This document shows, one piece after another, positions 13,850 to 34,666 of a stretch of DNA of 34,666 bases (position 1 is its first letter; every line of letters begins with the position of its first letter). The DNA lies in assembly GCA_035529555.1 (NCBI GenBank), contig DATKWL010000116.1, positions 1 through 34,666 on the forward strand, written 5' to 3'. The position numbers and the translations under genes are program-made. Below the pieces are notes generated by a model that was given only the letters and a program-made list of their open reading frames with translations, was not told the origin of the DNA and ran no database searches. The DNA is from Dehalococcoidia bacterium (GTDB lineage Bacteria > Chloroflexota > Dehalococcoidia > SZUA-161).

Positions 13850-13850
13850 A

Positions 13851-15804: not shown

Positions 15805-15809
15805 AAACA

Positions 15810-16407: not shown

Positions 16408-16418
16408 TGGTGAAAAGG

Positions 16419-16464
16419 CAGAAAAATGGGGCAAGCAAATCAATTGCTTGCCCTTTTCTTTTTT
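16419..16464 (+). terminator. intrinsic-terminator-like hairpin between promoter and RBS
   Basis: Stem 16429-38/16444-53 (10 bp), loop ATCAA, then TTTTCTTTTTT at 16454-64. Confidence 0.7.
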
Positions 16465-16477
16465 GGTGAGGTTGTAA

Positions 16478-19699: not shown

Positions 19700-19700
19700 A

Positions 19701-19955
19701 ATGCCGAACGAAGAATGGGAAAAAGTAAAGCAAGCTTTGAAAAAGCCGGCAACGCCGGAGGCGATGAAAGAAGCCGCCCAAGCCTTTGAGCGATACCAGG
19801 TGGTGAAGTTGGCCAAAGGCAAGGGCTCCAAGCCGACGCTGGTTACCCTGGGCCGGGGGAGAGGGTACCCCAACGCTGTTCCAGTGAACAAAATCCCTGA
19901 GGAGCTGGCCAAGAACCCCAATTTCTTCAACCTCATGCAGAGGGTGGTGAAGTAA
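19701..19955 (+). CDS. hypothetical basic protein (84 aa)
   Basis: Starts 2 nt after the upstream stop. Confidence 0.55.
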   Translation: MPNEEWEKVKQALKKPATPEAMKEAAQAFERYQVVKLAKGKGSKPTLVTLGRGRGYPNAVPVNKIPEELAKNPNFFNLMQRVVK

Positions 19956-20633
19956 ATGCCTGTCGCAGTGCTGATGTCTGACTATGACCTTCCCACTCGC
20001 TCCGCCTCTGGGTTTGTGCTCAGATATATAGCGCCTAGGTTGGAGCCTGTGCACCTTTACGCCATCATGGCGAGGAGAGTGCCCTTTGAGCTTTCCGCGC
20101 CACAATCCGACTTAATCATCGGAGTCGGCCATGGAGATGAAGTCGGCTTCAGCGGGCAGAACGAGGCAGTGATTCTCGAGGTTGGCAAATATAACCCCGT
20201 GGAAGTTAGAGGCAAGGTGATAAAGCTCTTGTCCTGCCAGACCGGCATAGCACTCGGCCCCGATCTGGTAAAAAATGGTGCAGCGGCTTTCCTTGGCTAT
20301 GTGGACGATTATGTGTGGCTTTGCGATGCTGATCTTGCTTCAACGCCCTGGTCTGATAAGATGGCCACCGCCTGTCTCATGCCGGTGGTAGATTCGCTGA
20401 ACGCACTGCTTGATGGCAAAACATGCCGCGAAGCTTTCCAGATAGAGCTGGACGGCTACTCGAGGAATGCCGAGGTTGAAGAGGACGAACTGGCAAAAAG
20501 CTGTTTAGAGTTCAACCGAGAAAATGCCGTCCTGCTTGGGGATCCAGCGGGGCGGGTAAGAAAACGACCCAAACTCCCTTTGCCATTTCGGTTGGTGCCA
20601 CCGCCTCCGCTTTTAGTGCCTTTAAGGAGGTGA
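19956..20633 (+). CDS. candidate clan-CD-like cysteine peptidase with proline-rich tail (225 aa)
   Basis: IIGVGHGDE (His59) and KLLSCQTG (Cys94), 35 residues apart, resemble the gingipain/caspase His-Gly ... Cys dyad. Tail is KRPKLPLPFRLVPPPPLLVPLRR. Pattern-level evidence only. Confidence 0.45.
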   Translation: MPVAVLMSDYDLPTRSASGFVLRYIAPRLEPVHLYAIMARRVPFELSAPQSDLIIGVGHGDEVGFSGQNEAVILEVGKYNPVEVRGKVIKLLSCQTGIALGPDLVKNGAAAFLGYVDDYVWLCDADLASTPWSDKMATACLMPVVDSLNALLDGKTCREAFQIELDGYSRNAEVEEDELAKSCLEFNRENAVLLGDPAGRVRKRPKLPLPFRLVPPPPLLVPLRR

Positions 20634-20658: not shown

Positions 20659-20688
20659 TTGACAAATTTCTGTCCCTGTGTTTAGAAT
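20659..20688 (+). promoter_or_regulatory. sigma70-like promoter TTGACA-18-TAGAAT with an AT-rich upstream tract
   Basis: -35 at 20659-64 and -10 at 20683-88. The sequence AAAAATAAACTAAATAAAAAC lies upstream. Confidence 0.6.
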
Positions 20689-20699
20689 TGTAGCGGGAT

Positions 20700-20771
20700 A
20701 AAAAGGCGGTCAGTTGCTGAGACGAGAGTTTTGGCTGACCGCCTTTTCTCTTTATTCAGTAACTATCCCGC
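20700..20771 (+). repeat. 72-nt leader element copy B
   Basis: Outer stem 20705-13/20735-43, inner stem 20717-23/20728-34, loop GAGA at 20724-27, followed by TTTTCTCTTT. Confidence 0.8.
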
Positions 20772-20777
20772 CCGCTC

Positions 20778-20835
20778 AAAAACGGGGCAAGCAACCTTCC
20801 CCGGAAGGTTTGAACGGCTTGCCCCGTTCCTTTTT
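20778..20835 (+). terminator. leader hairpin copy (CGGGGCAAGC ... GCTTGCCCCG with inner ACCTTC/GAAGGT stem + U-tract)
   Basis: Outer stem 20783-92/20817-26, followed by TTCCTTTTT. Confidence 0.65.
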
Positions 20836-20872
20836 GGTGAGGGTTGCTTCCCCAGAGTAAAAGGAGGGTGAC

Positions 20873-21187
20873 ATGCCTAATAAGCTTCCGGAGCCAACAA
20901 CTATTATTAGTGCCTTAGGAGGCGGAGCTATTGATCTGGCCGAGGGGCCGGTAATAGCTGCCATCAACACCGCCGGAGTCGCCCAGGAATTTGCCAATAA
21001 TGTCAAAGGTAACCTTGACAACCTCAAGAAGGGGATACCCCAAGACCCGTCAGCTATACCTGATTTTGCGGTGAGGGCAGTCACGCACACGATTTCTGAC
21101 GGCTTGGGTTTCTTCGAGGGCCTCGGCAAAGCGGCAACGCAAACTTTTGAAAGTGTCCGCGGTGAGCTCAGGAGAATCACAGGTTAA
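20873..21187 (+). CDS. hypothetical protein, N-terminal MPNKLPEP (104 aa)
   Basis: AAAAGGAGGG SD. First gene after the double-hairpin leader. Confidence 0.6.
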   Translation: MPNKLPEPTTIISALGGGAIDLAEGPVIAAINTAGVAQEFANNVKGNLDNLKKGIPQDPSAIPDFAVRAVTHTISDGLGFFEGLGKAATQTFESVRGELRRITG

Positions 21188-21197
21188 GGAGAGGAAT

Positions 21198-21527
21198 ATG
21201 CCGTACAAGAATCCAACAGAATTATTGGTTGACGCAACCAAGTTGCCAGCGGCGATAGAGGCGAAGCTGCCCGCGGGCGCGCCCAAACTTTCGACAACGT
21301 TGGTGAACATAGCCACCAAGCTTCCCAAGGTTCCCGATTTCCCGATGGAGCTTCCCGACCTGCCGGCGCCGCCAGAGCTGCCCGAACTGCCGGCACCCCC
21401 TGGAGCTGAGCTGCGGCGCTATGTCACCGGTGTCGAGGTGGCGCCAGTGGTGGGTGCGGCTGTGGTTGCGCCAACGCCAGCGCCAGTACCCGCCAGACGG
21501 GGATTGGTTCCCTTTGTCTATGAATAA
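21198..21527 (+). CDS. proline-rich KLP/ELP-repeat protein (109 aa)
   Basis: AAGGAGAGG SD upstream of ATG 21198. The track ORF 21147 extension overlaps the previous gene. Confidence 0.55.
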   Translation: MPYKNPTELLVDATKLPAAIEAKLPAGAPKLSTTLVNIATKLPKVPDFPMELPDLPAPPELPELPAPPGAELRRYVTGVEVAPVVGAAVVAPTPAPVPARRGLVPFVYE

Positions 21528-21550
21528 ATTTAGGAGGAGGACATAGGAAA

Positions 21551-22309
21551 ATGGCTGAAATTGTTGGGCCAGCATTTGCAAAACTAAATCTGATGGCAGG
21601 CACCGCCAGACTTCTGGAGCAAGTAGACCTAAAGCCAGACGACTTAATGGTCTTCAATAGAGACTTCGACCTGCTTGTGAAGGAGCTGTCAAAGGTTGAC
21701 CCTGAGTTGGGGCACAATCTGGCTGCCGAAAAAGAGTTTTACCTCGGTGTCAACCAGATAGCCAAAGGCTACTTCAACATGAAGCCCTTTGGCGGATTAA
21801 AGTCTTCAACCGGGCAATATGGTATGAACATCATTTCGCCCCAGAATCTGAAGACTGATGCAGCCGGCGCAACCCGCCGATATTTGAGCTGGGCGCAGAC
21901 GCTTAGCGTCACCATTAGCGGCACCCATCAGTTTATACTTGGGACTTCTGCTACTGCAGAGTGCTATGCCTCTGCTGAAAGTGAGAAGAAGGAAGTTATT
22001 GGCTTTCACGCCTTCCTCAGCTATAAGCCGGACCCGAAGCTCGTTCTGCTCCACTTGGAAATCAATGATTACCCCTATCCTACCTGGAATGTGGAGCCAT
22101 ATGCCAAGATTACCAAGGCCGATAAGCTATTCAAGATTCTGCCTATTCCCGGTCGAGTAATCCTGCATCCGGGTGGCAAGTTCGCCCTTCAGGGTTTCTT
22201 CGACATCGGCAGCAGCATGGCCGCCGCGGTTTCTGTTGACGTTGAGATATGTCCATTTGGCCTTTGCTTTGCCGAATACGACCAGTTTGAATCCAGCAAC
22301 ATACACTAA
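21551..22309 (+). CDS. hypothetical protein, candidate major structural subunit (252 aa)
   Basis: AGGAGGAGG SD. Largest ORF of the module. No family recognisable by eye. Confidence 0.6.
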   Translation: MAEIVGPAFAKLNLMAGTARLLEQVDLKPDDLMVFNRDFDLLVKELSKVDPELGHNLAAEKEFYLGVNQIAKGYFNMKPFGGLKSSTGQYGMNIISPQNLKTDAAGATRRYLSWAQTLSVTISGTHQFILGTSATAECYASAESEKKEVIGFHAFLSYKPDPKLVLLHLEINDYPYPTWNVEPYAKITKADKLFKILPIPGRVILHPGGKFALQGFFDIGSSMAAAVSVDVEICPFGLCFAEYDQFESSNIH

Positions 22310-22323
22310 AAGGAGGTGACTAA

Positions 22324-22740
22324 ATGACGACAAGTATTTATAAGTTCGAGCAGGGTCGCCTCCTGGTCCACGAAGAGAGAACGTTAGAGACGGGCTATCC
22401 AGCCGTACAAAGTGGCGTCCCGGTCAGGATCGGCCATGTCAGGGCAATAGACCAAGTTCTTTCTATTGATACCAACTATAGTAGGTACGGCCTTATCACT
22501 CAACTCGACGAGGTGAGAATCAGCGGCAACGAGATTTTCGTGGTGATGCGGCGGGGTGACATGGGTACTGTAGTTACCAGTGGCCTCTTTAGTGGTATTT
22601 CACCTGCGGGTCTCAGCGGAATGGCTGCCCTCGGACTCATGAGCGGTATCACCAGCGGGCTTGACTGGCGCGCAGAGCTGCTCAGTGGAGTAGGAATTAG
22701 CGGCGTGGTCAAGGTAACCGCTAACGTCATTGGCTACTAA
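22324..22740 (+). CDS. hypothetical protein with Gly/Ser-rich C-terminal half (138 aa)
   Basis: AAAGGAGGTG SD. Repeated (L/I)SG motifs. Confidence 0.6.
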   Translation: MTTSIYKFEQGRLLVHEERTLETGYPAVQSGVPVRIGHVRAIDQVLSIDTNYSRYGLITQLDEVRISGNEIFVVMRRGDMGTVVTSGLFSGISPAGLSGMAALGLMSGITSGLDWRAELLSGVGISGVVKVTANVIGY

Positions 22741-22786
22741 GGTCGGCTTTGCCCCCTGAAAAGAGAAAAGAGATGGAGGTGGCCCG

Positions 22787-23401
22787 ATGTTAGAACTGCG
22801 GCCGATTGAGGTCTTTGAGCAGGTATGGCCCAGACCGAAGGTCTTGCTACCGGGGCACAATGTCCAGTTCAGCGACAAGTTCCCCGACGGGCTGGACTTC
22901 GTCAAGGGCAAGACTTTCCGGATTACCAAGACGGCCCAGGTAAGATATGAGCTGTCCTGGATTCTGCCCGCCATCAACTACAAGGATATAAACCTGTCGA
23001 ATGAGAACGCCGGGGAGAAGCTCTATCCCGAGGCTAAGGATGAAGTCTACGAGACCCTTATCGGCTTCAAGCCCGGAAACTACTTTACCCTTATCTACTT
23101 CCCCGCCGAGCAGCCCATCTACCGGCTTGGCTACTACACGATGACGCCGCTTATCAGCAGCGCCTCCCTGAAATACCTTGGCGCCATCAAGCCGGAAGAT
23201 AGCCCGGTAAATAACCCCACCCTCAAGATATACACGTTCTTTAAGCTTAACCCGTTCATCTTCAGGATCGCCGTTGACAACGGCGTGGATTACGAAAAGA
23301 TGACCTGGGAAATCTGCGTCAACAAGTGCAAGCTGGAAACGATTGCGGCCCCGGCGGAGCCGGTTAAATACATACCCTATATTGACGAGCTGAAATGGTA
23401 G
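22787..23401 (+). CDS. hypothetical protein, candidate structural subunit (204 aa)
   Basis: GGAGGTGG SD. Confidence 0.6.
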   Translation: MLELRPIEVFEQVWPRPKVLLPGHNVQFSDKFPDGLDFVKGKTFRITKTAQVRYELSWILPAINYKDINLSNENAGEKLYPEAKDEVYETLIGFKPGNYFTLIYFPAEQPIYRLGYYTMTPLISSASLKYLGAIKPEDSPVNNPTLKIYTFFKLNPFIFRIAVDNGVDYEKMTWEICVNKCKLETIAAPAEPVKYIPYIDELKW

Positions 23402-23411
23402 GAGGTGAGCC

Positions 23412-23774
23412 GTGGCAACTAAGATAGTCAACGCCATAACGACCGGCATGGACCTGTGGGCGGAGCACGAGCACAAGAAGGGGCACCTGCTCGGGCTCAA
23501 AGTTGATAACAAGCACTCAGCGCCCGAGACCATCAGACTCATGGACAACTTCACCACCGATGCCGGCTACACCTCCGGCGGCTCGGCCTACAGCGCCGAG
23601 AGCCTCATCAGCGGCTCCGCCATACAGAAGTTCCAGGTAACGGTCCCGGCGGGGGACTCGATTTCCCTTGGGGAGGAAGACTGCAAGGGTCTTGAGTTTC
23701 TGGGAAGAGCTGCAGCCCTTGGTTCAGCAACAGCATCCGGTTGCATAATCACCGCCCAGTACAAGCTCACCTAA
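23412..23774 (+). CDS. hypothetical protein (120 aa)
   Basis: GTG start with AGGAGGTG 4 nt upstream. Confidence 0.55.
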   Translation: MATKIVNAITTGMDLWAEHEHKKGHLLGLKVDNKHSAPETIRLMDNFTTDAGYTSGGSAYSAESLISGSAIQKFQVTVPAGDSISLGEEDCKGLEFLGRAAALGSATASGCIITAQYKLT

Positions 23775-23783
23775 GGAGACAAT

Positions 23784-24194
23784 ATGCCAATAACGGTAAT
23801 AAAAGGGCCTGAGGGCGTCCGGACAGTATTTAGTGCTGTTGAAACTATCACGCAGCTTAGAACTGTGCAGATTGCCTCCGGCTTTACCAGATCCATAATG
23901 GAGGCTGTTTCAGGTTACCCGGAACTGGGCTTGGGAGTGGCCGCTGAGAGCGTTGCATCAGGGGACTTGGCGAGGATAATAACCGGGGGCTATGTTAGCG
24001 GTGTGATATGCGCCTCTGGTGTTAGCTTTGGCGATATTCTCCAGGCCTTCGCGGCATCGGGACTGGGGTCTGGCACAGGGCATGTGGCGCCACAGCTTTC
24101 CGGTCAGATGATGATTGGTAAGGCAGCGATGTCAGGTGGAAGGGGTAGCGGAATAGGTATGATAGTTGATTTCGGTCCAAAAGCAGTACCGTAA
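23784..24194 (+). CDS. hypothetical Gly-rich protein, faintly DUF2190 / capsid-decoration-like (136 aa)
   Basis: TAAGGAG SD. The Gly-rich pattern (SGDLARIITGGYVSG ... IGKAAMSGGRGSGIGMIV) is only a loose resemblance, recalled from memory. Confidence 0.55.
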   Translation: MPITVIKGPEGVRTVFSAVETITQLRTVQIASGFTRSIMEAVSGYPELGLGVAAESVASGDLARIITGGYVSGVICASGVSFGDILQAFAASGLGSGTGHVAPQLSGQMMIGKAAMSGGRGSGIGMIVDFGPKAVP

Positions 24195-24284: not shown

Positions 24285-24464
24285 ATGCAGCAGACTGTTG
24301 AAATCCCGCTCGGCACTATAAAAACCTACGGCACCGTGAGTGGCTATATCTATCTTCACATCCCGAACTTCATAGCCAAGCAGTTCAACATTACCCCCTC
24401 CACATGTTTCTTTATCATCTACAAAGACAGCAAAATAGTGCTTGAGCAAAAAAAGGAGAAATAA
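24285..24464 (+). CDS. possible AbrB/SpoVT-type small DNA-binding protein (59 aa, below the ORF-track cutoff)
   Basis: My own translation is MQQTVEIPLGTIKTYGTVSGYIYLHIPNFIAKQFNITPSTCFFIIYKDSKIVLEQKKEK. It fits the looped-hinge-helix pattern (IPxxhxKxhxI..., then a short strand ending IVLE). No SD. Confidence 0.35.
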   Translation: MQQTVEIPLGTIKTYGTVSGYIYLHIPNFIAKQFNITPSTCFFIIYKDSKIVLEQKKEK

Positions 24465-24466
24465 TA

Positions 24467-25132
24467 ATGGGTTCCTGGGAACGGCAGAAAGTAAAGGAAA
24501 ACAGAGTACTCTTATCTACTATCTCTCCCCCTGATGGAAAGGTTTCATATCAATGGGCAAGAAGCTGGAGGGAGCTCCAATTACCCCAAGAGTCGGATAA
24601 CTTGATTGTGCAGGGCCTGCCTTACGGCGTTGCTAGGAATTACGCGGTGAAACAGTTACTGGAACAGGGGTTCAGCTGGCTCTTCTTCCTCGACAGTGAC
24701 ATCACTCTGCCACCCAACGCAGTGATGCGACTGCTGGAAACCAAACTGCCCCTGATAGGCTGTTATTATACCCACCGTTTCCCCCCTTACGAGCCTTGTT
24801 TCTACGGAGCTAAGCAGGATGAGCAAGGGAAAATCCAAAAGGTTGCCCTTACCGGGTGGAATTTCGGGGATATTGTGCCGTCTGTATTTTTGCCGGGTGG
24901 TGCTTGCCTGATTCATCGTTGTGTGTTTGAAAGGATGTCGGCGGCAGGGATTAGGAAGTGGTATGAATGGACGCTCGATGTAGATGAACCAATAGGGATT
25001 TCAGAGGATTACTCGTTCTCGTTAAAAGCTTATTCATTGGGGATTACCCCCATGGCGCATACAGGAATCCAAGCTCGCCATGAATGCCTCGCTACCTGCG
25101 GGGTGAGAGGAATAGAGGCAGTAACGCAATGA
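24467..25132 (+). CDS. GT-A fold glycosyltransferase-like protein (221 aa)
   Basis: FFLDSDITLPPNAV (DxD) and SEDYSF. AAGGAG SD. Confidence 0.7.
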   Translation: MGSWERQKVKENRVLLSTISPPDGKVSYQWARSWRELQLPQESDNLIVQGLPYGVARNYAVKQLLEQGFSWLFFLDSDITLPPNAVMRLLETKLPLIGCYYTHRFPPYEPCFYGAKQDEQGKIQKVALTGWNFGDIVPSVFLPGGACLIHRCVFERMSAAGIRKWYEWTLDVDEPIGISEDYSFSLKAYSLGITPMAHTGIQARHECLATCGVRGIEAVTQ

Positions 25133-26673
25133 AAGCAGAAGATTGCCCCAAGGTTAAAATGGACGGCAAATTAAAAAGCTTGGAAGAACTCACTGAAATA
25201 GTTCAAGCATTGAAGGAACAAGACAAGAAAATCGTCCATTGCCACGGGGTCTTTGACCTCCTCCATCCAGGCCATATCCGCCATTTGAAAGCGGCTAGTC
25301 GTGAGGGGGATGTGCTTATAGTAACCGTGACCCTGGACAGATTTGTCAATAAAGGATCCGGCCGCCCCGTTTTTAATGAGGAACTCCGTGCCGAATCTAT
25401 CGCTGCCCTACACTGTGTGGACTTTGTGGCCATTAATGAGTGGCCAACAGCCGTTGAGACAATAAAGAAATTGAAACCTGATGTCTATGTTAAGGGGAGC
25501 GATTACATTCACCGTGAAAATGACCCAACCGGGGGGATATATGAAGAGGAGGAAGCCATTTGGTCCATTGGCGGGCGAATTCACTTTACTAATGAACTCT
25601 CCTTCAGCTCAACCGAGTTACTGAACGGTAACTTTAGCATCCCCAAACAGGCACAGAAATTCCTTGAGCAGTTCCGTTCCATATACTCGGCAGATGATGT
25701 TATACAACGACTAAGAGAGCTGGCAAAAACGAAGGTGCTCGTCATCGGCGATGCGATTATCGATGAGTACCACTACTGCGAACCTATGGGAAAGTCCCCC
25801 AAGGAGAGCATCATGACGACAAGATATCTGCGCGAGGAGGCGTTCGCCGGGGGTGCCCTGGCAGCTGCCAACCACGCTGCTGGATTCTGTGAATGCGTTC
25901 ACTTGATTACCTGTTTGGGGGCAGAGAGCAGCCAAGAGGGATTCATTAGGAGTCACCTCAGGTCAAACGTGAAGGCAAAGTTCTTTTACCGTGAAGATGC
26001 CCCCACACCAACCAAGCGCCGCTATATTGACCCTTTTCTAGCCAAGATATTCGCTGTCTATTACTTGAATAATAGCGATTTGCCTCTGGCTATCGAGAAT
26101 GAAGTTTGCCAGTATATAGAGGCAAACGTTGGGGAATACGACTTAGTCGTCGTAACCGATTTCGGGCACGGATTTATTGGCTCCCGAATCATAGACTTGG
26201 TATGCAACAAAGCCCGGTTTCTGGCTGTCACCGCCCAGACTAATAGTGCCAATATTGGCTTCAATCAGATAACGAAATACCCCAGAGCTGATTATATCTG
26301 TCTTGATGGGTTAGAACTTCGACTCGCCTGTCATGACAAATGTGGTGAGTTTGAAAAACTAGTGCCTAGAATAGGGCAACTGCTTGAATGCAACAACATT
26401 GCCGTTACCCGCGGCAATGACGGTTCACTGACTTACCTGGGCCAAGGTGGCTTCTTTGAAGTCCCTGCCCTAACTGACAAGGTGGTGGATAGACTCGGCG
26501 CCGGTGATGCTTATCTCGCCATTACCGCACCCTGCGCCGCCAAGGGTTACCCTATGGACATGGTAGGTTTTATCGGGAATGCGGTAGGTGCTCTCCAAGT
26601 TCAAGGCATTGGTAACAAAGAGCCGGTGGCGGCACCTGCTTTGTTTAAATTCATTAAGGCGTTGCTTAAATAA
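25129..26673 (+). CDS. bifunctional nucleotidyltransferase (N-terminal) / PfkB sugar kinase (C-terminal), 514 aa
   Basis: HCHGVFDLLHPGHIRHL (HxGH cytidylyltransferase-like) at the N-terminus. LGAGDAYLA (PfkB GAGD) near the C-terminus. ATGA overlap with the upstream stop. Confidence 0.85.
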   Translation: MKAEDCPKVKMDGKLKSLEELTEIVQALKEQDKKIVHCHGVFDLLHPGHIRHLKAASREGDVLIVTVTLDRFVNKGSGRPVFNEELRAESIAALHCVDFVAINEWPTAVETIKKLKPDVYVKGSDYIHRENDPTGGIYEEEEAIWSIGGRIHFTNELSFSSTELLNGNFSIPKQAQKFLEQFRSIYSADDVIQRLRELAKTKVLVIGDAIIDEYHYCEPMGKSPKESIMTTRYLREEAFAGGALAAANHAAGFCECVHLITCLGAESSQEGFIRSHLRSNVKAKFFYREDAPTPTKRRYIDPFLAKIFAVYYLNNSDLPLAIENEVCQYIEANVGEYDLVVVTDFGHGFIGSRIIDLVCNKARFLAVTAQTNSANIGFNQITKYPRADYICLDGLELRLACHDKCGEFEKLVPRIGQLLECNNIAVTRGNDGSLTYLGQGGFFEVPALTDKVVDRLGAGDAYLAITAPCAAKGYPMDMVGFIGNAVGALQVQGIGNKEPVAAPALFKFIKALLK

Positions 26674-27743
26674 TGGATAATTTAAGGATTGATTCGCATA
26701 AATTGCTTTATCACCCAAAAAGGGTAGCCCAGTGGCTCAACGAGGAGAATGTCTACCCGCTTTATCTTGAGATTGGGCCCTCAGGCAGGTGTAATCACTG
26801 TTGCATATTTTGTTCCTTCGATTACCTAAAGTACCAAGGCCCGTTTATTGAAAAGGGTGCTCTGGCTAGCTTTATTTCCGAGTCGGCCACAGTGGGAGTT
26901 AAAAGCGTTCTCTATTCCGGAGAAGGAGAGCCACTACTACATGAGGATGTAGCCGAAATTATCCTGCAAACGGAGAAATTTGGCATTGATGTAGCACTCA
27001 GCACCAATGGTGTTCTCTTTAACAACAGTCTTGCTAGGCAAACTCTGGGCTCCCTTACTTGGATAAGATTTAGCCTGGATGCTGCCACCAAAGAGACACA
27101 CGGTAAAATTCACCGTTGCCCAGAAGGGGACTTTGGTTTAATCATCAAAAACATCTCTGATGCCGTCAAAATAAAGAGACAGAATAACTACGCCTGCACC
27201 ATTGGCGTTCAGTTTCTTTTGCTCCCGGAGAACCACCACGAAGCCATCAAGCTGGCAGCAATGACGGGAGATATGGGAGTTGACTATTTAACAATAAAAC
27301 CCTTCTACAGGCGCCCGATGAGTTATCATACCCCCGATAGGGACTTCCATTATACTGATCTCTTAGCCCTTGATGACGACCTTCAGGAATTGGCAAGCGA
27401 CCAATTCAAGGTAATTTTCCGTGCCCGCGCCATGGAGAAACTTGAAGATGAGAAGAAGGAGTACGAGCAATGTTTGGGATTGCCCTTTGCCGCTCATATT
27501 GACGCCAAGGGAGATATGTATACATGCAGTGCCTTTGTCGGGGATAAAAACTTTTGCTATGGCAATATCTACCAGAGTTCCTTTTCTGAAATCTGGGAAG
27601 GGGAAAAGAGGAAAGAGGTATTGCTGAGAGTAGCTGAAATGGACATTAGCCAGTGCCGTAGGAATTGCAGGCTGGATGAGATAAACAGATACTTGTGGAG
27701 CTTAAGGCATACCGAACAGATTCCTCATGGAAAATTTATTTAA
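26673..27743 (+). CDS. radical SAM enzyme with C-terminal Cys-rich auxiliary region (356 aa)
   Basis: CNHCCIFC provides CxxxCxxC, followed by GEGEPLL. Additional Cys cluster near the C-terminus. Confidence 0.85.
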   Translation: MDNLRIDSHKLLYHPKRVAQWLNEENVYPLYLEIGPSGRCNHCCIFCSFDYLKYQGPFIEKGALASFISESATVGVKSVLYSGEGEPLLHEDVAEIILQTEKFGIDVALSTNGVLFNNSLARQTLGSLTWIRFSLDAATKETHGKIHRCPEGDFGLIIKNISDAVKIKRQNNYACTIGVQFLLLPENHHEAIKLAAMTGDMGVDYLTIKPFYRRPMSYHTPDRDFHYTDLLALDDDLQELASDQFKVIFRARAMEKLEDEKKEYEQCLGLPFAAHIDAKGDMYTCSAFVGDKNFCYGNIYQSSFSEIWEGEKRKEVLLRVAEMDISQCRRNCRLDEINRYLWSLRHTEQIPHGKFI

Positions 27744-28725
27744 GATGAAACGCAGATTTGTCATAATCGGCAGCAATTCTTTCTCAGGAAGCACCCTGAT
27801 TGACCTTCTCCAGCAGGATGAGGGAAATGAAGTAGTTGGTATCAGCCGGTCAAAGGAAAAAGACCGCCTCTTCCTAGCTTATAAAGGAGGCTTACAATTC
27901 CATCAGATGAACCTGAATACTGACCTCGATAAAATGCTTCAGCTCTTTGATAAGTATGAGCCTCACTATATTGTTAACTTCGCTTCCCAGAGCGAGGTCG
28001 CACCAAGCTGGGAATACCCGGAACAGTGGTATCAAACCAACTGCATGAGCATTGTAAGACTGAGCAACGAGCTTAAAGACAGGAAATACCTCAAGGGCTA
28101 TGTCCATATTTCAACACCAGAGGTATATGGGAGCTGCCCTAAAGTAACTGAGTCTGCTCCCCTCAACCCCAGCACCCCTTATGCAGCATCAAGAGCAGCC
28201 GCCGATATGTTCTTACTCTGCCTAGCGAGAAACTTTGACTTCCCGCTCACCATAATCCGCTCCACCAATGTATATGGTGCGCACCAGCAACTTTGGAAAA
28301 TCATCCCCCGGACAGTAATTTACCTGAAGCAGGGGAGGAAAATAGAGCTGCATGGGGGAGGTGACCAAATAAGGTCTTTTATTCATATTCGAGATGTTGC
28401 CCGTGGTATTCTTAAAGCTATTGAGTTGGGTAAACCAGGAAGCATTTATCACCTTTCGCCCCAAAACGGCTGCAGTATCAAGTGGATTGTGCAGCGAGTC
28501 TGCGAACTGATGGGCCATGATTTTGATAAAGCAACGGTCTCTTTTGGCAAGAGGGCGGGACAGGATGCGTGCTACATCATAGACTCCTCCAAAGCCCGCA
28601 CTGAGCTGGGGTGGCATCCGCAGATTCCCTTGGATGAAGGCCTTAAGGAGGTTATACAGTGGGTGGGGGAGAACTGGGAGGGAATTTCAACGGCGCCGCT
28701 GGAATATATCCACAAGGCGTATTAA
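27727..28725 (+). CDS. NAD-dependent epimerase/dehydratase-family extended SDR (332 aa; alternative start ATG 27745)
   Basis: FVIIGSNSFSGS Rossmann motif and ISTPEVYGS. The active-site motif reads YAASR instead of YxxxK. Confidence 0.8.
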   Translation: MENLFKMKRRFVIIGSNSFSGSTLIDLLQQDEGNEVVGISRSKEKDRLFLAYKGGLQFHQMNLNTDLDKMLQLFDKYEPHYIVNFASQSEVAPSWEYPEQWYQTNCMSIVRLSNELKDRKYLKGYVHISTPEVYGSCPKVTESAPLNPSTPYAASRAAADMFLLCLARNFDFPLTIIRSTNVYGAHQQLWKIIPRTVIYLKQGRKIELHGGGDQIRSFIHIRDVARGILKAIELGKPGSIYHLSPQNGCSIKWIVQRVCELMGHDFDKATVSFGKRAGQDACYIIDSSKARTELGWHPQIPLDEGLKEVIQWVGENWEGISTAPLEYIHKAY

Positions 28726-28738
28726 AGAAGGTGGGGCC

Positions 28739-30520
28739 ATGAAGGTATCAGATTATATAGTCGATTTCCTGAGCCGGCAGGGAATCAAGCACGCCTTTGT
28801 AATTACCGGAGGCGCCGCTGCCCATCTAATTGACTCTATAGCTAGAAACCCGGAGATGGACTATATCTGCACCCAGCATGAGCAGGCGGCGGCTATGGCC
28901 GCTGATGCCTATTCAAGGGTGACCGGCAATTTGGGGGTGGCGGTGGCAACCAGCGGACCGGGGGCAACAAATCTGCTGACTGGCATTGGCTGTGCATACT
29001 GTGACTCCATCCCTGTAATCTATATTACAGGGCAAGTTGTTACTCATCGTTTGAGGAGTGGTACCGGGGTCAGACAACTGGGCTTTCAGGAAGCGCCTAC
29101 TGTTGAAATCTACAAACCAACCACCAAGTATGCCGTCCTGATTGATGACCTTAAAAGAATCAGATATGAGATGGAGAAAGCAACTTATCTGGCCAAGTTT
29201 GGAAGACCAGGTCCGGTCTTGATTGACATTCCTGATAACCTTCAGAGGGAGCAGGTTAACCCTCATGAGCTGGAATCATTTGTCCCCGAGGAAAGCAACG
29301 ACCCAAAATTGGATGAACAGGTCGACCAGTTCATTCAACTTCTTGAGAGGGCGAGAAGGCCTGTTGTTATACTTGGCTGGGGGATTCGGTTGGCCCAAGC
29401 CGAAAAAGAGGCGAGAGAATTCATAAACAAGTTGCGCCTCCCAGTGCTACTGACTTGGGCAACGATGGATATGCTACCCTCTAGTGACCCGCTGGTTGTT
29501 GGCTCGTTTGGGCAACATGGCACCAGATACGGAAATTTCACCGTTCAGAATGCCGACCTCGTTCTAGCCATAGGCAGCAGATTGGACACACACTTAACCG
29601 GGGCTTCCATTACCAGCTTTGCCAGAGAGGCTAAGAAAATCATTGCCGATATTGACTTGAGCGAGTTGAATAAATACAAATTACTCGGCATGGATGCGGA
29701 TTTGCTCATCAATGCCGATGCCAAAGGCCTGCTCCGTGTTATGAACAGCAAAGTCGATGAAATGGTTAAGCCAGATATCTCAGAATGGAAAAGGAAAATT
29801 GAAACTTGGAAAGCCAAGTATCCTATCTGTCTACCTGAGTACTACCAGCAGGAAGAAGTTAACCCCTATGTCTTCGTAAAGGCTCTCGCCAGAGAATCGC
29901 CACAAGGGAGCACATTCCTCGCCGACACCGGTTGTGGACTGGTATGGCTGATGCAGGCATTTGAGTTTAAACAGAATCAGAGATTGTTTAGTGCCTTTAA
30001 CAATACTCCTATGGGATATTCGCTGCCAGCCAGCATTGGGGCCTGTTTTGCCCTTGGGAAAAAGCCGGTAATCTGCATTACCGGGGATGGTGGCCTTCAA
30101 GTTAACATCCAGGAGATGGCAACCATCATAAGGCACGACCTGCCAGTCAAGATCTTTCTTATCAATAACCGCGGTTATTCGATGGTAAGGCAGACGCAGG
30201 AACAATGGTTCGGCTCAAGGTACGAGGCTTCAACCGTGGAAAGCGGTTTGCCCGCGGTGAACTTCGTGAAGGTCGCTGAGGCTTACGGTTTTAAGGCTCT
30301 CACTATTACCACCAATAGAGAATTAGGCCAGCGAATACGGGAGGTACTGGATAGTGAGGGGCCAGTCTTCTGCGATGTTAAGATTAACCCAAATCACCGG
30401 GTCATCCCTCAGGTAAGGTTTGGGAGACCTATTGAGGATGGTGAGCCTTTCTTAGACAGGGATGAGCTACTATCGAATATGATTGTGAAACCAATGGAGA
30501 TTGGAGAGAAGTTAGCATGA
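28739..30520 (+). CDS. thiamine-diphosphate enzyme, acetolactate-synthase-like (593 aa)
   Basis: Typical N-terminus MKVSDYIVDFLSRQGIKHAFVITGG. ThDP motif ITGDGGLQVNIQEMAT...INNRGY. The track extension 28634-28738 overlaps the previous gene. Confidence 0.85.
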   Translation: MKVSDYIVDFLSRQGIKHAFVITGGAAAHLIDSIARNPEMDYICTQHEQAAAMAADAYSRVTGNLGVAVATSGPGATNLLTGIGCAYCDSIPVIYITGQVVTHRLRSGTGVRQLGFQEAPTVEIYKPTTKYAVLIDDLKRIRYEMEKATYLAKFGRPGPVLIDIPDNLQREQVNPHELESFVPEESNDPKLDEQVDQFIQLLERARRPVVILGWGIRLAQAEKEAREFINKLRLPVLLTWATMDMLPSSDPLVVGSFGQHGTRYGNFTVQNADLVLAIGSRLDTHLTGASITSFAREAKKIIADIDLSELNKYKLLGMDADLLINADAKGLLRVMNSKVDEMVKPDISEWKRKIETWKAKYPICLPEYYQQEEVNPYVFVKALARESPQGSTFLADTGCGLVWLMQAFEFKQNQRLFSAFNNTPMGYSLPASIGACFALGKKPVICITGDGGLQVNIQEMATIIRHDLPVKIFLINNRGYSMVRQTQEQWFGSRYEASTVESGLPAVNFVKVAEAYGFKALTITTNRELGQRIREVLDSEGPVFCDVKINPNHRVIPQVRFGRPIEDGEPFLDRDELLSNMIVKPMEIGEKLA

Positions 30521-31359
30521 AAGACAACAAAGAAATTAGCGAGCCAAAAGTTGTTCTCTTAATTTCCATCACCAGTGACATCGGCACGGCACTGGCCACG
30601 AGATATGCCGGTGAAGGTTTCACCGTTGTCGGCACATACCGTTCGACCAAACAGCTGAATAAATTGACGAACATCCCAAACTGTCACCTATTCTCCTGTG
30701 ATATCAATGACCGACAGAGTGTTGCCAGATTTACCAAAGAATACGTTGAGCTAGGCTTACCATGGGACACTTTTATATCTTTACCCGCTAGTCCGCTGCC
30801 CCTGAAAGCTTTTTTCAGATGTGATTTTGACGATTGGGCCGTTTCCATCCATATCAATTCCATTGAGCAGCTACGGGTACTTCATCAACTTTATCCATTT
30901 AGGAATAAGGAGCAGGTATCAAATGTTGTTTTCTTTGCCGCCGGCGGTGTTAATAATGCAGTGGTAAACTTTTCGGCCTTGACCGTTTCCAAGATAATGT
31001 TAAGCAAGATGTGTGAATTTCTGGACGCGGAAAATGAAGACCTGAACATATTTATAGTTGGTCCCGGCTGGACAAAAACAAAAACCCATCACCTAATATT
31101 AGAGCACGTGGACCGAACCGATGAGAGATATCAAAAAACCATTAATTTTCTGGAAAATGAAGAAGGCACCAGTATGGATGATATCTACGGCTGCATAAAG
31201 TGGTTATGTGAACAAGGTAAAGAAGTAAGCAGTGGCCGAAACTTTTCGGTTGTGAATGACAAGTGGAAAGGACAACCAAGTACTAAATTAGCATCTGAAC
31301 TAAGGTCTGATATCAATATGTACAAGTTGAGGAGATATAAGAGCGATTTCCCCCAATGA
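30517..31359 (+). CDS. atypical short-chain dehydrogenase-like protein (280 aa)
   Basis: ISITSDIGTALA Rossmann-like motif. The expected YxxxK region reads LTVSKIML, with no Tyr. ATGA overlap. Confidence 0.65.
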   Translation: MKDNKEISEPKVVLLISITSDIGTALATRYAGEGFTVVGTYRSTKQLNKLTNIPNCHLFSCDINDRQSVARFTKEYVELGLPWDTFISLPASPLPLKAFFRCDFDDWAVSIHINSIEQLRVLHQLYPFRNKEQVSNVVFFAAGGVNNAVVNFSALTVSKIMLSKMCEFLDAENEDLNIFIVGPGWTKTKTHHLILEHVDRTDERYQKTINFLENEEGTSMDDIYGCIKWLCEQGKEVSSGRNFSVVNDKWKGQPSTKLASELRSDINMYKLRRYKSDFPQ

Positions 31360-32063
31360 GCATGGAGGTTGGCTCAATGAAAAAATTAACACAAAAGGAG
31401 GCGTTTGAAAAAGGCGCTCAATATCAAATTGACACAGAACCCGTGTCTCTCGGGCCATTGACTTCATTTAGTCTGCTGGAGGATCCGAAGCACATGTGTT
31501 TTGTTTTGTCCCGATATAAGTTCTGTTCCAAAATACTGGAGGGTAAAGAAAATATATTGGAGATTGGTTGCGGTGATGGTTTTGGGATACCCATAATTGC
31601 CCAGAATGCAAAATATGTCCTGGCCATAGATTCCTGTGATAGGCTAATTGTCGGCAACAGCCAAAGACTGAAAAAAATAAAGAAAGTCCAATTTAAAAAC
31701 CTTGATATTTGTAAAGCTGTTCCCGATAAGACCTTCGATGGCGTATTCTCAATAGATGTGATTGAACATCTGGACCCCCATCTTGAAACACCCTTCATGG
31801 TGAATTCGTGCAAATGCCTCAAAGAAGATGGGATATGCATTGTTGGAACCCCTAATATAACTGCCAGTAAATATGCGACTCCAAGAAGCAGAGTTCAGCA
31901 CATTAATTTGAAAGGTCATAAAACATTACGAGATTTAATGAGTAAATATTTTGAGAACGTACTAATGTTTTCGATGAACGATGAGGTGATACATACCGGG
32001 TACGATCCAATGGCACATTACTTGTTTGGTATTGGGGTTGGCAAGAAGAGAGGAAGTGTGTGA
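31356..32063 (+). CDS. class I SAM-dependent methyltransferase (235 aa)
   Basis: ILEIGCGDGFG motif I. ATGA overlap. Confidence 0.8.
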   Translation: MSMEVGSMKKLTQKEAFEKGAQYQIDTEPVSLGPLTSFSLLEDPKHMCFVLSRYKFCSKILEGKENILEIGCGDGFGIPIIAQNAKYVLAIDSCDRLIVGNSQRLKKIKKVQFKNLDICKAVPDKTFDGVFSIDVIEHLDPHLETPFMVNSCKCLKEDGICIVGTPNITASKYATPRSRVQHINLKGHKTLRDLMSKYFENVLMFSMNDEVIHTGYDPMAHYLFGIGVGKKRGSV

Positions 32064-32755
32064 AAGTAAAGGTATCGGAAATGATGGGACAGGAAATTAA
32101 TTTGCTCAACTTGTATCCCCGCTTCAAGCGCCCGATCGAGGAGCGCGGCAGGCTGGCCACGGAAGAATGCCGGGAAGTCGCCCGCCAGTTCGGTAAAGAT
32201 TTTTTTGACGGTGACCGTCTATACGGCTATGGCGGTTACTACTATCACCCACGCTTCTGGCAGGCGACCGCCAAGCGATTTCGGGACTACTACCAGCTAG
32301 CTGAGAATGCCAGTGTGCTGGACGTAGGCTGCGCCAAGGGATTCATGCTGCATGACTTCAAGGAACTCTTGCCGAATCTTACCATCGCTGGCATTGATAT
32401 TTCCGAGTATGCCATCGAGAACGCCATAGAGACTGTCAAGCCCTTCTTGCGTGTGGGTAATGCCAAGGAATTGCCCTACGGGGACAACTCATTTGACCTG
32501 GTGATCTCCATTAACACCGTACACAACCTGCCCCTGGAGGAGTGCAAGCAGGCGCTACGCGAGATTCAGCGAGTTAGTCGCCAGCATGCCTTTATCACAG
32601 TAGATGCCTGGCGAACTGAGGAGGAAAAGGAACGGCTTATCAAGTGGAATCTAACCGGGTTAACATATATGCAGGTAGATGAGTGGAAACGATTATTTGA
32701 AGAAGTTGGATATCAGGGCGACTACTTCTGGTTTATTGCGGAACATGAAAACTAA
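32060..32755 (+). CDS. class I SAM-dependent methyltransferase (231 aa)
   Basis: VLDVGCAKGFML motif I. GTG start overlapping the upstream TGA. Confidence 0.75.
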   Translation: MKVKVSEMMGQEINLLNLYPRFKRPIEERGRLATEECREVARQFGKDFFDGDRLYGYGGYYYHPRFWQATAKRFRDYYQLAENASVLDVGCAKGFMLHDFKELLPNLTIAGIDISEYAIENAIETVKPFLRVGNAKELPYGDNSFDLVISINTVHNLPLEECKQALREIQRVSRQHAFITVDAWRTEEEKERLIKWNLTGLTYMQVDEWKRLFEEVGYQGDYFWFIAEHEN

Positions 32756-33800
32756 AGCTGCCGTATTATACAAGATTGGTAAACCTTTGGTCATTGAAGA
32801 GTTGCAAATACCCGAGCTGCATCATGGTCAGGTGCTGGTAAAGGTGCTATACAGTGGAGTATGCCGGAGCCAATTGAACGAGATAAATGGGTTAAAAGGT
32901 GAAGATAAATATCTCCCTCACACACTGGGCCATGAGGGTTCAGGTATAGTTGAAACAGTTGGGCCGAGCGTAGGGAAGGTCAAGTCAGGCGACCATGTTG
33001 TGCTTACCTGGATTAAAGGTGATGGATTGGATGTTCCGTCCGCAATTTATCGGAGAAACAATGGGGCAGTAGTGAATTCCGGAGCGCTTTCCACCTTCAT
33101 GGAGCATGCGGTTATATCAGAAAACCGGCTCATTGCCATTCCAAAGAAAATGCCGCTCCGTGAAGCGTTATTGCTTGGGTGTGCAGTTCCTACCGGCGCC
33201 GGAATAGTAATGAACACTTTGAAGGCCAAAGAAGGTGACACAATCGCAATTTTGGGGGTTGGTGGAGTAGGGTTAAGTGCCGTTATGGCCTCCAGCCTTA
33301 TGAACGCCACTACTATTATTGCCATCGACGTGCTCGAGAGAAAACTTGAGCAAGCCCGTCAGCTTGGTGCCACACACCTGATTGATGCTCGCCAGCAAGA
33401 CCCGCTGGCAACCATCTTGGAGATTACTGGCGGTTGTGGGGTGGACTACGCCATTGAGGCGGCTGGGCAGCGTGAAACCATGGAAACCGCTTTTCAGGCT
33501 GTGCGTGACAATGGTGGGCTCTGCGTGCTGGCTGGCAATCTCGCCCGGGGGGAAAAGATTTCTATCGACCCCTTCGCTTTAATAAAAGGCAAAAGAATAA
33601 TTGGAAGCTGGGGTGGAGAAACTAACCCGGATAAAGATATACCACACTACGTAAAGCTCTATTTGTCTGGCAAGATAAAACTGGGAAGCTTAATCAGCCA
33701 TCAATACAGCTTAGAGGCAATAAATGATGCCCTGGCCGCGTTCGAGGCTGGGGAAACTACCAGGGTTCTAATTGAGATAGGCGACAGTGATAATGCTTGA
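32745..33800 (+). CDS. zinc-type medium-chain alcohol dehydrogenase/reductase (351 aa)
   Basis: GVCRSQL, GHEGSGIVETVG and GVGGVGLS. No Cys cluster for a structural zinc. The track ORF starts earlier, inside the previous gene. Confidence 0.85.
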   Translation: MKTKAAVLYKIGKPLVIEELQIPELHHGQVLVKVLYSGVCRSQLNEINGLKGEDKYLPHTLGHEGSGIVETVGPSVGKVKSGDHVVLTWIKGDGLDVPSAIYRRNNGAVVNSGALSTFMEHAVISENRLIAIPKKMPLREALLLGCAVPTGAGIVMNTLKAKEGDTIAILGVGGVGLSAVMASSLMNATTIIAIDVLERKLEQARQLGATHLIDARQQDPLATILEITGGCGVDYAIEAAGQRETMETAFQAVRDNGGLCVLAGNLARGEKISIDPFALIKGKRIIGSWGGETNPDKDIPHYVKLYLSGKIKLGSLISHQYSLEAINDALAAFEAGETTRVLIEIGDSDNA

Positions 33801-34666
33801 TTTGTTTACTATAGTCTGGGGAGAAATGGCAGATTCTTATCTGGAGTTCACCTTGCCTTCTATGCTGCAAGAGGGAAATATCCCGGCTGCCAGAGAATCA
33901 ATTGGTAGCTATACGTTCTACGCCAGCGACGAAGCGAAAAGCGTAATCACTGCCGATAGGTTATACCCGCAGCTAGAAAAGCTAGTGCCTATCCTTTGGC
34001 AACCACTACAAAAGGGCGAGTGGGAGCTTAACAGCAATATCCTCTCCCAGATGAAAGCCAGTGCTTCAATGAAAAACTATATACTACCTTTGCCGCCTGA
34101 TGTAACACTGGGCAACAAGTCCCTGTTAAATCTTACCGGCCTTATTAACCAAAATTTCAATCCAATCCTATATAGCATCCCCCGAATCACGGAAGAGGGC
34201 TGTGAGGCCTTAAAGTCATTATTGAAGGCGCAGGAGGTGGTCAGCAATAGAGAGATGGTCTCCCTCGCCATGAAATATTTTTGGAAGAGAGCTTACCCCA
34301 TAGTCGATAGGGGTGACCACTGGGAAGTGTCCTGTCCACTGCCAGCCCCTTGTTTTTTGCCAGATGCCGAATTAATCGACTACTTCTCACAAGACACAAC
34401 ATTAACAGGTTACAATATCGACCATTGCCTTCCTTACACAATGGTGGAAAGAGGCTACCCCTGGCATTTGATCAACCACAGCGACATATTCTTTGGAGTA
34501 GAGAGGAAAACTCAGATACTCACAAAAAAAGTCAGCGAGCTTGGCATTTGGCGTCCGGAGCGAGAGGAAGACATTATCAAAACAAGACAAGCCGAGGAAT
34601 TTTTCGTGAGACAAAGCGTACAAACTTGGCAGGGGTTCGAGCGTAGTAAGCCACAGGATTTTATAA
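33793..34666 (+). CDS. hypothetical protein, 5' partial view (291 codons, open to the window end)
   Basis: Not in the ORF track because no stop is reached. I translated it codon by codon from ATG 33793 (ATGCTTGA overlap with the upstream stop) to 34665 and found no stop: MLDLFTIVWGEMADSYLEFTLPSMLQEG... Confidence 0.6.
   Translation, partial: MLDLFTIVWGEMADSYLEFTLPSMLQEGNIPAARESIGSYTFYASDEAKSVITADRLYPQLEKLVPILWQPLQKGEWELNSNILSQMKASASMKNYILPLPPDVTLGNKSLLNLTGLINQNFNPILYSIPRITEEGCEALKSLLKAQEVVSNREMVSLAMKYFWKRAYPIVDRGDHWEVSCPLPAPCFLPDAELIDYFSQDTTLTGYNIDHCLPYTMVERGYPWHLINHSDIFFGVERKTQILTKKVSELGIWRPEREEDIIKTRQAEEFFVRQSVQTWQGFERSKPQDFI

Follow-up and report, generated by a model that had tools for sequence, protein, structure and literature searches.

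The subject of this study is a sugar-biosynthesis operon on contig DATKWL010000116.1, the complete length of which (34,666 bp) was analysed and is referred to as the window. From position 24467 to the contig end, the + strand carries nine complete open reading frames (ORFs) and the start of a tenth, all of which are co-directional. The first-pass annotation had described them as a ten-gene operon with assigned enzymes, and this description holds, as all ten ORFs lie on the + strand and both Pfam and NCBIfam agree with the domain calls. The genes, referred to as g1 to g10, are as follows.

g1, 24467-25132, + strand: glycosyltransferase of predicted GT-A fold, 221 aa
g2, 25129-26673, + strand: CTP_transf_like nucleotidyltransferase (N-terminal) fused to a PfkB sugar kinase (C-terminal), by Pfam
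g3, 26673-27743, + strand: radical S-adenosylmethionine (SAM) and SPASM protein with the cluster motif CNHCCIFC, by Pfam and NCBIfam
g4, 27727-28725, + strand: extended short-chain dehydrogenase/reductase (SDR) of the nucleoside diphosphate (NDP)-sugar 4,6-dehydratase/epimerase type, by Pfam and NCBIfam
g5, 28739-30520, + strand: thiamine diphosphate (ThDP) enzyme with TPP_enzyme N, M and C domains and the acetohydroxyacid synthase (AHAS) fold, 593 aa
g6, 30517-31359, + strand: classical-type SDR, by Pfam
g7, 31377-32063, + strand: SAM methyltransferase 1, with an alternative start at 31356 and a GGAGG before 31377
g8, 32060-32755, + strand: SAM methyltransferase 2, with a GTG start
g9, 32745-33800, + strand: Zn-dependent medium-chain dehydrogenase/reductase (MDR)
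g10, 33793-34666, + strand: first 291 aa of a giant glycosyltransferase/methyltransferase that the contig end truncates

The operon comprises at least 13 genes, ten of which lie inside the window, and is tightly coupled. Overlaps of 4 nt, of the ATGA/GTGA type, join g1/g2, g5/g6 and g7/g8, and also g6/g7 if g7 starts at 31356; the remaining overlaps are 1 nt (g2/g3), 17 nt (g3/g4), 11 nt (g8/g9) and 8 nt (g9/g10). The earlier statement that short start/stop overlaps link the genes is therefore right for most junctions (1-17 nt), but g4 and g5 are separated by a 13-nt spacer, which carries an AAGGTGG Shine-Dalgarno motif. Shine-Dalgarno-like motifs lie 5' of g1, g5, g7 and g8. Because all homologues of g5 are of about 593 aa, its start is placed at 28739 and not at the longest-ORF start at 28634, and the start of g9 is most likely 32745, since its homologues are 348-358 aa long. 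The last gene, which had been listed as a separate ORF of unknown type, is only the N-terminus of a 1333-aa protein, and therefore the operon extends past the contig end. The protein is complete in L004, an ENA contig 99% identical to the window, where it consists of an unknown N-terminal domain, a GT2 glycosyltransferase and four methyltransferase domains, and is followed by a 590-aa FN3-like protein and then a GT1 glycosyltransferase. A megablast search of the operon against phage and plasmid collections gave no match, and neither did tRNA and Rfam scans of the window.

The ThDP enzyme g5 is central to the predicted function of the operon. Its catalytic glutamate (E48) and the ThDP motif G449-D450-G451...N476-N477 are invariant among 22 homologues. 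The best solved relative in a PDB search is JanthE (8rph; 1e-102, 348 bits), followed by 5ahk (313 bits), which we take to be the YerE homologue of Pseudomonas protegens, by a plant AHAS (306 bits) and by AHAS I of Escherichia coli (287 bits), with true AHAS enzymes at 3e-90 or weaker. Furthermore, g5 sits in a nucleotide-sugar cluster beside an SDR that putatively forms a 4-keto sugar, without the AHAS small subunit or ilv genes. These features point to a YerE-like ThDP-dependent carboligase. JanthE itself is a YerE-like, ketone-accepting carboligase (PMC12188165), and YerE-like enzymes put acyl branches derived from 2-oxo acids on NDP-4-keto sugars for surface glycans, with more than 200 such clusters predicted in silico (PMC12247030). 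A phosphonate pathway was considered and rejected, as phosphoenolpyruvate mutase is missing and the ThDP enzyme is a three-domain protein.

Scanning one genome for each GTDB species, with the ThDP homologue as anchor, gave 80 loci, 53 of which are at least 15 kb long, and the ten window proteins were compared with these loci by tblastn. The best 120 listed matches of the ThDP family are 58-100% identical, and the longest contig reaches 1.36 Mb. The loci span Chloroflexota (the closest, at 67-72%), Nitrospirota, Omnitrophota, Planctomycetota, Verrucomicrobiota, Desulfobacterota and others, and occur also in Patescibacteria, in the methanogen genus Methanoregula and in DPANN archaea. Beside the ThDP homologue, the 53 long loci encode g6-like (47 loci), g8-like (47), g2-like (37), g9-like (31), g4-like (28) and g7-like (17) proteins; three or more of g4, g6, g8 and g9 occur together in 31 of the 53, and an E1 alpha/beta pair is present in 41. 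Homologues of g1 and g10 were found in none of the long loci, and those of g3 in only two. One Anaerolineae locus, with rml-like genes and a GT2, matches g8 at 85%, g5 at 68%, g9 at 64% and g4 at 60% identity, and the gene table of a Deltaproteobacteria locus is that of an ordinary polysaccharide-type locus. Close synteny with ordinary cell-glycan loci, which had been named beforehand as evidence that would speak against a particle-associated operon, is thus largely seen for the enzymatic core, since g2 and g4-g9 recur in polysaccharide loci of many phyla. Judging from these comparisons, the enzymatic core is a horizontally spread cassette that is common in cell-envelope glycan loci, the closest of which are in Chloroflexota. 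The proposed order of activation, 4-keto formation, ThDP-dependent branching, reduction and methylation fits these results, in that JanthE is the best solved relative of g5 and the same SDR, reductase and methyltransferase partners recur in dozens of genomes. As a side observation, a PIN / AF2212-like toxin-antitoxin pair is inserted mid-cassette in the Anaerolineae locus L085 (7047-7656).

The activating enzyme g2 matches the NCBIfam models rfaE_dom_II (7e-31, residues 39-178) and rfaE_dom_I (2e-27, residues 211-512), both below their equivalog cut-offs, and scores 149 bits against a cut-off of 521 for the HldE model PRK11316; the order of kinase and nucleotidyltransferase is reversed relative to HldE. 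Its PDB matches are heptose-7-phosphate kinase and cytidylyltransferases. By these profile matches, g2 is an HldE-like protein with swapped domain order. GmhA and GmhB adjoin the g2 homologue in L086 and L142, two sister elements of the window that are described below, and GmhA alone does so in L085 and L001. Among the cellular loci, GmhA-like genes occur in 23 of the 53 long ones, in 16 cases within 3 kb of a g2 homologue (37 loci have a g2-like gene). As GmhA and GmhB adjoin g2 homologues in these relatives, we suggest, by analogy, that the activated sugar is probably a heptose. A literature search found no paper connecting YerE-type enzymes with heptose, and a search on the structure 5ahk likewise yielded no relevant paper. 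Inositol catabolism, suggested by IolC/IolD/IolM-like matches, was rejected because these matches score far under the cut-off and the surrounding genes are of the sugar-nucleotide kind.

Among the remaining enzymes, g4 has STPEVYG in place of the TDE of RmlB (Pro for Asp), a substitution conserved in the family (47 homologues), and scores 194.5 bits with TIGR01181, against a cut-off of 365.1, so that it falls outside RmlB-type membership. The sequence of g4 makes it likely that the enzyme oxidises C4 of the sugar nucleotide. At the YxxxK position, g4 reads YAASR and its family has K or R; a defect at this position was considered and rejected, as about half of the homologues share the R. In g6, the catalytic Tyr is replaced by Leu153 (codon TTG), whilst 65 of 66 homologues have Tyr and the remaining one has Asn. 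The methyltransferase g8 is the gene with the 85% match in Anaerolineae, which is found in loci L007 and L085. The nearest characterised relative of g3, by best PDB match, is BlsE, a cytosylglucuronate decarboxylase and thus a radical SAM enzyme acting on a nucleoside sugar. Neighbours of the ThDP gene that are homologous to g3 are confined to L086 and L142 (62-64% identity), both sister elements, and to two loci from archaeal metagenome-assembled genomes (MAGs).

The operon follows directly on a module of small proteins without recognisable relatives in protein families (ORFans) and is preceded by a small ORF:

Module of seven small ORFan proteins, 20873-24194, + strand: 104, 126, 252, 138, 204, 120 and 136 aa
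orf59, 24285-24464, + strand: small ORF ending 2 nt before g1

The attachment of the operon to this module, as proposed earlier, is confirmed: the two are continuous, with only a weak hairpin and a 90-nt gap between them, and the linkage is kept in relatives whose proteins are 30-75% identical. In sister contigs L086, L140, L141 and L142, g1 is 62-75% identical. The relatives of g1 share the upstream ORFans (252, 138, 204, 120 and 136 aa and the 59-aa ORF) in the same order and, farther upstream, a type III polyketide synthase (PKS), UbiA, an SDR and ParA, at 30-85% identity and also in the same order, including in contigs of 78-98 kb. The sugar genes that follow g1 differ between contigs:

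Window and L004, after g1: the operon listed above, g2 onward
L086 and L142, after g1: the same cassette plus a nucleotidyltransferase (NTP-transferase), GmhA and GmhB
L140, after g1: GHMP kinase, SDR, split E1/transketolase, aldo-keto reductase (AKR), RmlC
L141, after g1: cupins, SDR, GHMP kinase, E1 alpha/beta, two B12-radical SAM enzymes
L149, after g1: GT2, GT1, methyltransferase, NTP-transferase, cupin

As the sister contigs share the backbone and g1 but differ in the sugar cassette, the position after g1 constitutes a hypervariable slot, and its location directly after the structural-like module is kept across the element family. A kinase, an extended SDR and a ThDP-dependent enzyme that forms C-C bonds recur in each of three cassette types, which suggests a branched-chain sugar as the common theme, with interchangeable classes of enzyme to make it. 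Three metagenomes contain contigs whose upstream sequence is different and meets that of the window precisely at 24452 (15 nt ahead of g1) and at 31376 (ahead of g7). The G+C content is 47.2% in the operon, against 53.7% in the upstream module, with g6 and g7 at 40-42% and g7 the lowest of the operon at 39.7%. The lower G+C content of the operon and the joints at 24452 and 31376 are signs of horizontal acquisition and mosaicism.

The borders of the slot are conserved. On the left, orf59, which looks AbrB/SpoVT-like only by eye and has no Pfam hit, always accompanies g1, and its homologues lie directly upstream of g1 in L086, L140-L143 and L149-L152. In an alignment of 23 sequences, D76-S77-D78 of g1 (DxD) is invariant or nearly so and S179-E180-D181 (SED) is invariant. 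The AF2 model of g1 has a pLDDT of 62 (low confidence), and its top Foldseek matches are mostly GT-A transferases and related nucleotidyltransferase folds, among them ColGalT1, Mimivirus R699 and B3GNT2 (E of about 1e-6, TM 0.45-0.50, probability 1.0). The protein has no Pfam family, a profile search against PDB sequences gave nothing significant, and its close relatives number only about 26. On the strength of the predicted fold, g1 is probably a small GT-A-like glycosyltransferase, and it forms the conserved left border of the glycan slot. The right border is the giant GT2 and methyltransferase protein represented by g10, as the cassette ends in such a multidomain protein in L004, L086, L140 and L141. 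Up to about 34100 hardly any differences separate the window from L004, but the final ~420 nt, inside g10, contain about 100 differing positions. It may be added that the right end of the window falls where L004 diverges sharply (from about 34250), and that the independent assembly L144 breaks only about 400 nt beyond the left end; both ends are probably not accidental, but due to termini or to regions that vary between strains.

The backbone that carries the slot is rich in ORFans, with about 20 consecutive small ones on the minus strand and about 15 more ORFs without a Pfam family on the plus strand, and its genes form two divergent blocks on either side of a ParA gene. None of the 80 cassette-bearing genome loci encodes a backbone protein. 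The 252-aa protein of the module is predicted to consist of N-terminal helices and an eight-strand jelly roll (pLDDT 86). Its more than 120 homologues lie on contigs of at most 97.6 kb; one comes from a "viral metagenome" and one from a Dehalococcoidales MAG. No significant match came from profile searches of PDB sequences with the 204-aa and 252-aa families, and the idea of two paralogous jelly-roll capsid proteins was dropped, as hhalign found no relationship between the two families. From ORFan density and contig sizes, we infer that the window is part of an element, and such elements are candidate viruses or plasmid-like replicons. The family is found in soil-labelled and marine-sediment metagenomes. 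Peptide deformylase and Shine-Dalgarno motifs point to a bacterial host, and the closest cassette genes suggest that it belongs to Chloroflexota.

Read depth is uniform across the window, at about 10x, which counts in favour of a mobile or viral element. Three small metatranscriptomes labelled "soil metagenome" contain RNA contigs that are 99-100% identical to the window at 20900-23500, 6300-7260, 9550-11790 and 17970-19830, and therefore the element is transcribed in its natural setting. Recovery is best for the jelly-roll module, with the RNA contigs clustering at 21.0-23.2 kb, and this clustering fits abundant structural proteins.

Taken together, we consider it fairly probable that the operon makes and transfers a C-branched, methylated nucleotide-sugar, and that a family of ORFan-rich elements has taken up its cassette into a hypervariable glycan slot. 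The gene identities are those given above, and the chemistry of every step of the pathway is deduced from them. Firstly, g2 would phosphorylate a sugar phosphate at C1 and then nucleotidylate it, the sugar probably being a heptose by analogy with HldE and GmhA/GmhB. The NAD-dependent extended SDR g4 would then form the NDP-4-keto sugar, which is possibly 6-deoxy, and g5 would decarboxylate a 2-oxo acid and add the acyl unit to the keto carbon, leaving a tertiary-alcohol branch. The branch carbonyl would be reduced by the Zn-dependent MDR g9, the partner SDR g6 being without its catalytic Tyr here. Methylation of the sugar (O- or C-) by g7 and g8 and further radical-based tailoring by the radical SAM/SPASM protein g3 may follow. 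Finally, g1, the giant g10 with its GT2 and four methyltransferase domains, and the downstream GT1 would transfer the sugar and further methylate the glycan.

Among the closest known systems is the synthesis of CDP-yersiniose A by YerE/YerF (with the related ErwE, MMAR_2332, PpYerE and JanthE). The likeness lies in the AHAS-fold ThDP enzyme with GDG...NN, in its position beside an SDR able to make an NDP-4-keto sugar, and in the reductase g9, which could act as YerF. In contrast to that system, activation here is by an HldE-like kinase/nucleotidyltransferase and not by the CDP-glucose route, the E1/E3 genes for 3-deoxygenation are absent, two methyltransferases and a radical SAM/SPASM protein are added, and the setting is an ORFan-rich element instead of an enterobacterial O-antigen cluster. 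With the ADP-heptose pathway (GmhA, HldE, GmhB, HldD) the operon shares both HldE domains in g2, and a GmhA-like SIS protein and a GmhB-like HAD protein follow the g2 homologue in sister elements and many cellular loci; the two differ in the reversed domain order and low HldE score of g2, in the absence of GmhA and GmhB from the window, and in keto formation, branching and methylation, which lie outside the synthesis of the lipopolysaccharide core. Giant viruses, as in the glycosylation of Mimivirus fibrils, encode nucleotide-sugar clusters and glycosyltransferases of their own by their structural genes, and these differ between lineages. The window follows the same pattern of a self-encoded pathway by structural-like genes, varying in relatives, and R699 is a fold match of g1; unlike giant viruses, it has no giant-virus hallmarks, its context is of bacterial type (Shine-Dalgarno motifs, peptide deformylase, gene overlaps) and the element is of about 100 kb or less. 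O-antigen and capsule loci resemble the slot in their conserved flanks, swappable centre, lower and uneven G+C content and recombination joints at gene boundaries. They differ from it in that neither Wzx/Wzy, Wzm/Wzt nor an initiating transferase is present in the window and the next 6 kb of L004, in that it is flanked by a small GT-A protein on one side and a giant fusion of GT2 and methyltransferase domains on the other, and in that the locus comes after an ORFan structural-like module.

Several observations weigh against the proposed pathway and setting. The margin by which g5 is YerE-like and not AHAS is modest (348 against 306 bits), in a ranking by score. 6-Deoxygenation by g4 is uncertain, because the Asp of the RmlB TDE is missing and the score is under the dehydratase cut-off, and g6, to judge from its sequence, is probably inactive as a reductase here. 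Neither GmhA nor GmhB is in the window, and the heptose assignment consequently depends entirely on relatives. With the GmhA and GmhB of sister elements missing and g6 lacking its catalytic Tyr, the pathway is not the complete one that had been proposed. No RNA contig derives from the sugar operon in the three metatranscriptomes, a depth of 0 that is weak evidence. The 252-aa protein matches birnavirus VP2 and SPV1 capsid proteins weakly (TM of about 0.27), among TNF/C1q and carbohydrate-binding module hits. Beyond ParA, no viral or plasmid hallmark was found in the tested proteins, be it a terminase, a portal, an HK97 capsid protein or a jelly-roll capsid protein with an FtsK/HerA packaging ATPase: about 50 window ORFs and 10 proteins of L148 gave no hallmark match in PHROG or Pfam, and the PHROG matches were only to families of unknown function, in a search that covers about 35 kb of a genome of probably 80-100 kb. 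The 252-aa family has no member in IMG/VR and no tblastn match in deposited phages (INPHARED); relatives of the ThDP family in IMG/VR are at most 44% identical over a full-length match, and among deposited phages the ThDP enzyme finds only AHAS genes, at 31-34% identity. The identification of the element as a phage or virus thus finds no support in hallmark genes or in relatives from these collections.

The sugar is perhaps attached to one of the element's own surface or particle proteins, made in abundance, and the glycan would then vary in a serotype-like manner; we rank this candidate, at a little under an even chance, above the host envelope, a lipid made by the PKS/UbiA genes, and DNA, in that order. 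The broader proposal of a new family of viruses or particle-forming elements of about 80-100 kb is doubtful. Such elements would live in sediment bacteria, possibly Chloroflexota, without known viral hallmarks; their jelly-roll/ORFan particle would be coated by a self-made, heavily methylated, C-branched glycan, the cassette of which is swapped like a serotype locus whilst always keeping some class of ThDP branching enzyme.

The operon could instead remodel the envelope of the host cell, by serotype conversion, receptor masking or superinfection exclusion, and not the element's own particle. This alternative is rather unlikely, yet it draws on the origin of the cassette in host-type envelope-glycan loci and on the resemblance of the variable cassettes to O-antigen diversity, and recovery of RNA from the module and not from the operon is compatible with separate regulation of the two. 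Known phage seroconversion (gtr/oac) uses one to three modifying genes, a precedent that includes neither a whole precursor pathway nor giant polymer-type transferases; in addition, there is no flippase, polymerase or exporter in the window or the L004 extension, and the slot is kept after the structural-like module throughout the family.

It is unlikely that the window is simply bacterial chromosome, for example of an uncultured member of Chloroflexota/Dehalococcoidia, with the operon as an ordinary locus for a surface polysaccharide or S-layer glycan. The core cassette is indeed typical of cellular glycan loci, the genes upstream include cellular types (peptide deformylase, Mrp/ParA, UbiA, type III PKS, SDR), one 252-aa homologue is binned in the Dehalococcoidales MAG, and viral hallmarks and IMG/VR relatives are absent. 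A chromosome is nevertheless difficult to reconcile with the small ORFans on both strands, with the lengths of the more than 120 contigs that encode the 252-aa protein, all of them 97.6 kb or less, and with the absence of backbone proteins from the 80 cassette-bearing genome loci. Nor do the window and the next 6 kb of L004 contain Wzx/Wzy, an ABC exporter or an initiating phosphoglycosyltransferase, and the layout, with divergent blocks around ParA and repeated structured intergenic elements, is replicon-like.

Attachment of the sugar to a phenolic or prenylated lipid, giving a glycolipid, is improbable. UbiA, the type III PKS and the NAD_binding_4 reductase are kept in the backbone of the window, L142, L148 and L149 (in L149 with an acyl carrier protein), and with a methyltransferase they could supply such a lipid; however, the two gene sets are 9 kb apart, terminator-like repeats at about 16.4 and 20.7 kb appear to separate the transcription units, and no lipid-linked-sugar enzymes were identified. 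Use of the sugar for hypermodification of the element's DNA, one of the acceptors first considered, has only the general precedent of phage DNA glycosylation and no supporting result, and is hardly credible, as no hydroxymethylase, thymidylate-synthase-like gene or DNA-glycosyltransferase homologue was found in the window, and the transferases are of GT-A, GT2 and GT1 types, fused to methyltransferases and accompanied by an FN3-like protein.

Other features of the backbone deserve mention. Four copies of a conserved intergenic element (8874-8959 on the minus strand, 9123-9247, 16418-16471 and 20699-20868) each lie just upstream of the first gene of a gene block. Each consists of a GGGGCAAGC...GCTTGCCCC hairpin followed by a T-run, and two copies add a 73-nt AAAAAGGCGGTCAG...CTGACCGCCTTTT hairpin. 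The copy at 20690-20872 folds at z = -6.2, and directly before it, at 20659-20688, lies the region's best sigma-70-like promoter match (TTGACA-18-TAGAAT); when the element at 20.6-20.9 kb was scanned against Rfam by E-value, only a sub-threshold small RNA match resulted. The four elements may act as terminators that separate units or as leaders of the attenuator type. Three unrelated small ORFans (654-1085, minus strand; 15592-15804, plus strand; 15801-16013, plus strand) contain EGPPLPR, with W-P a few residues on, as in EGPPLPRALGIHWPW and EGPPLPRGLQLRWPG, and this could serve as a short linear motif for docking or processing.

The lipid-type gene set at 11916-15224, composed of the UbiA prenyltransferase, the type III PKS, a small methyltransferase-like ORF and the NAD_binding_4 reductase, is an unusual cargo for a mobile element. 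The ORF at 10930-11904, the C-terminal half of which is a peptide deformylase (Pfam 4e-34), adjoins the ParA/Mrp-like ATPase (9258-10064), and L144 and L145, both near-identical contigs, carry it too. A 474-aa acidic, coiled-coil-like ORFan (6868-8292, minus strand) has a 138-nt tandem duplication at 7262-7537 and is alone in the minus-strand block in differing clearly between assemblies (89-90%, against 97-100% for its neighbours). The 835-aa protein at 17192-19699 has internal repeats of about 360-380 nt, which by eye are paired Ig-like units, and a C-terminal Flg_new_2 domain (InlB B-repeat-like); L142 and L148 encode a shorter Flg_new_2 protein, with an S8 peptidase preceding it. The 225-aa ORFan at 19956-20633 contains GVGHGDE ... 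LLSCQTG, by eye like a His-Cys dyad of the caspase/gingipain type, and on this resemblance may be a protease of the module. Finally, the only confident PHROG match in the window is that of a Cys-rich 133-aa protein (5594-5995, minus strand) to the functionally uncharacterised family phrog_23287 (8e-19).

As chemistry, the operon is a variant of known YerE-type pathways for branched sugars, and the setting is its more novel aspect. The core cassette, consisting of the HldE-like activator, extended SDR, YerE-like enzyme, methyltransferases and MDR, often with GmhA and E1 alpha/beta, is unusually widespread, and the branched sugar that it encodes is probably common among environmental microbes, though not yet described; the cassette is also a ready source of ketone-accepting carboligases. 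The presence of a swappable slot in a recurring, transcribed and ORFan-rich element offers a concrete handle on genomic dark matter. Should the element prove to be a virus, giant viruses would no longer stand alone in encoding serotype-like glycan coats of their own.

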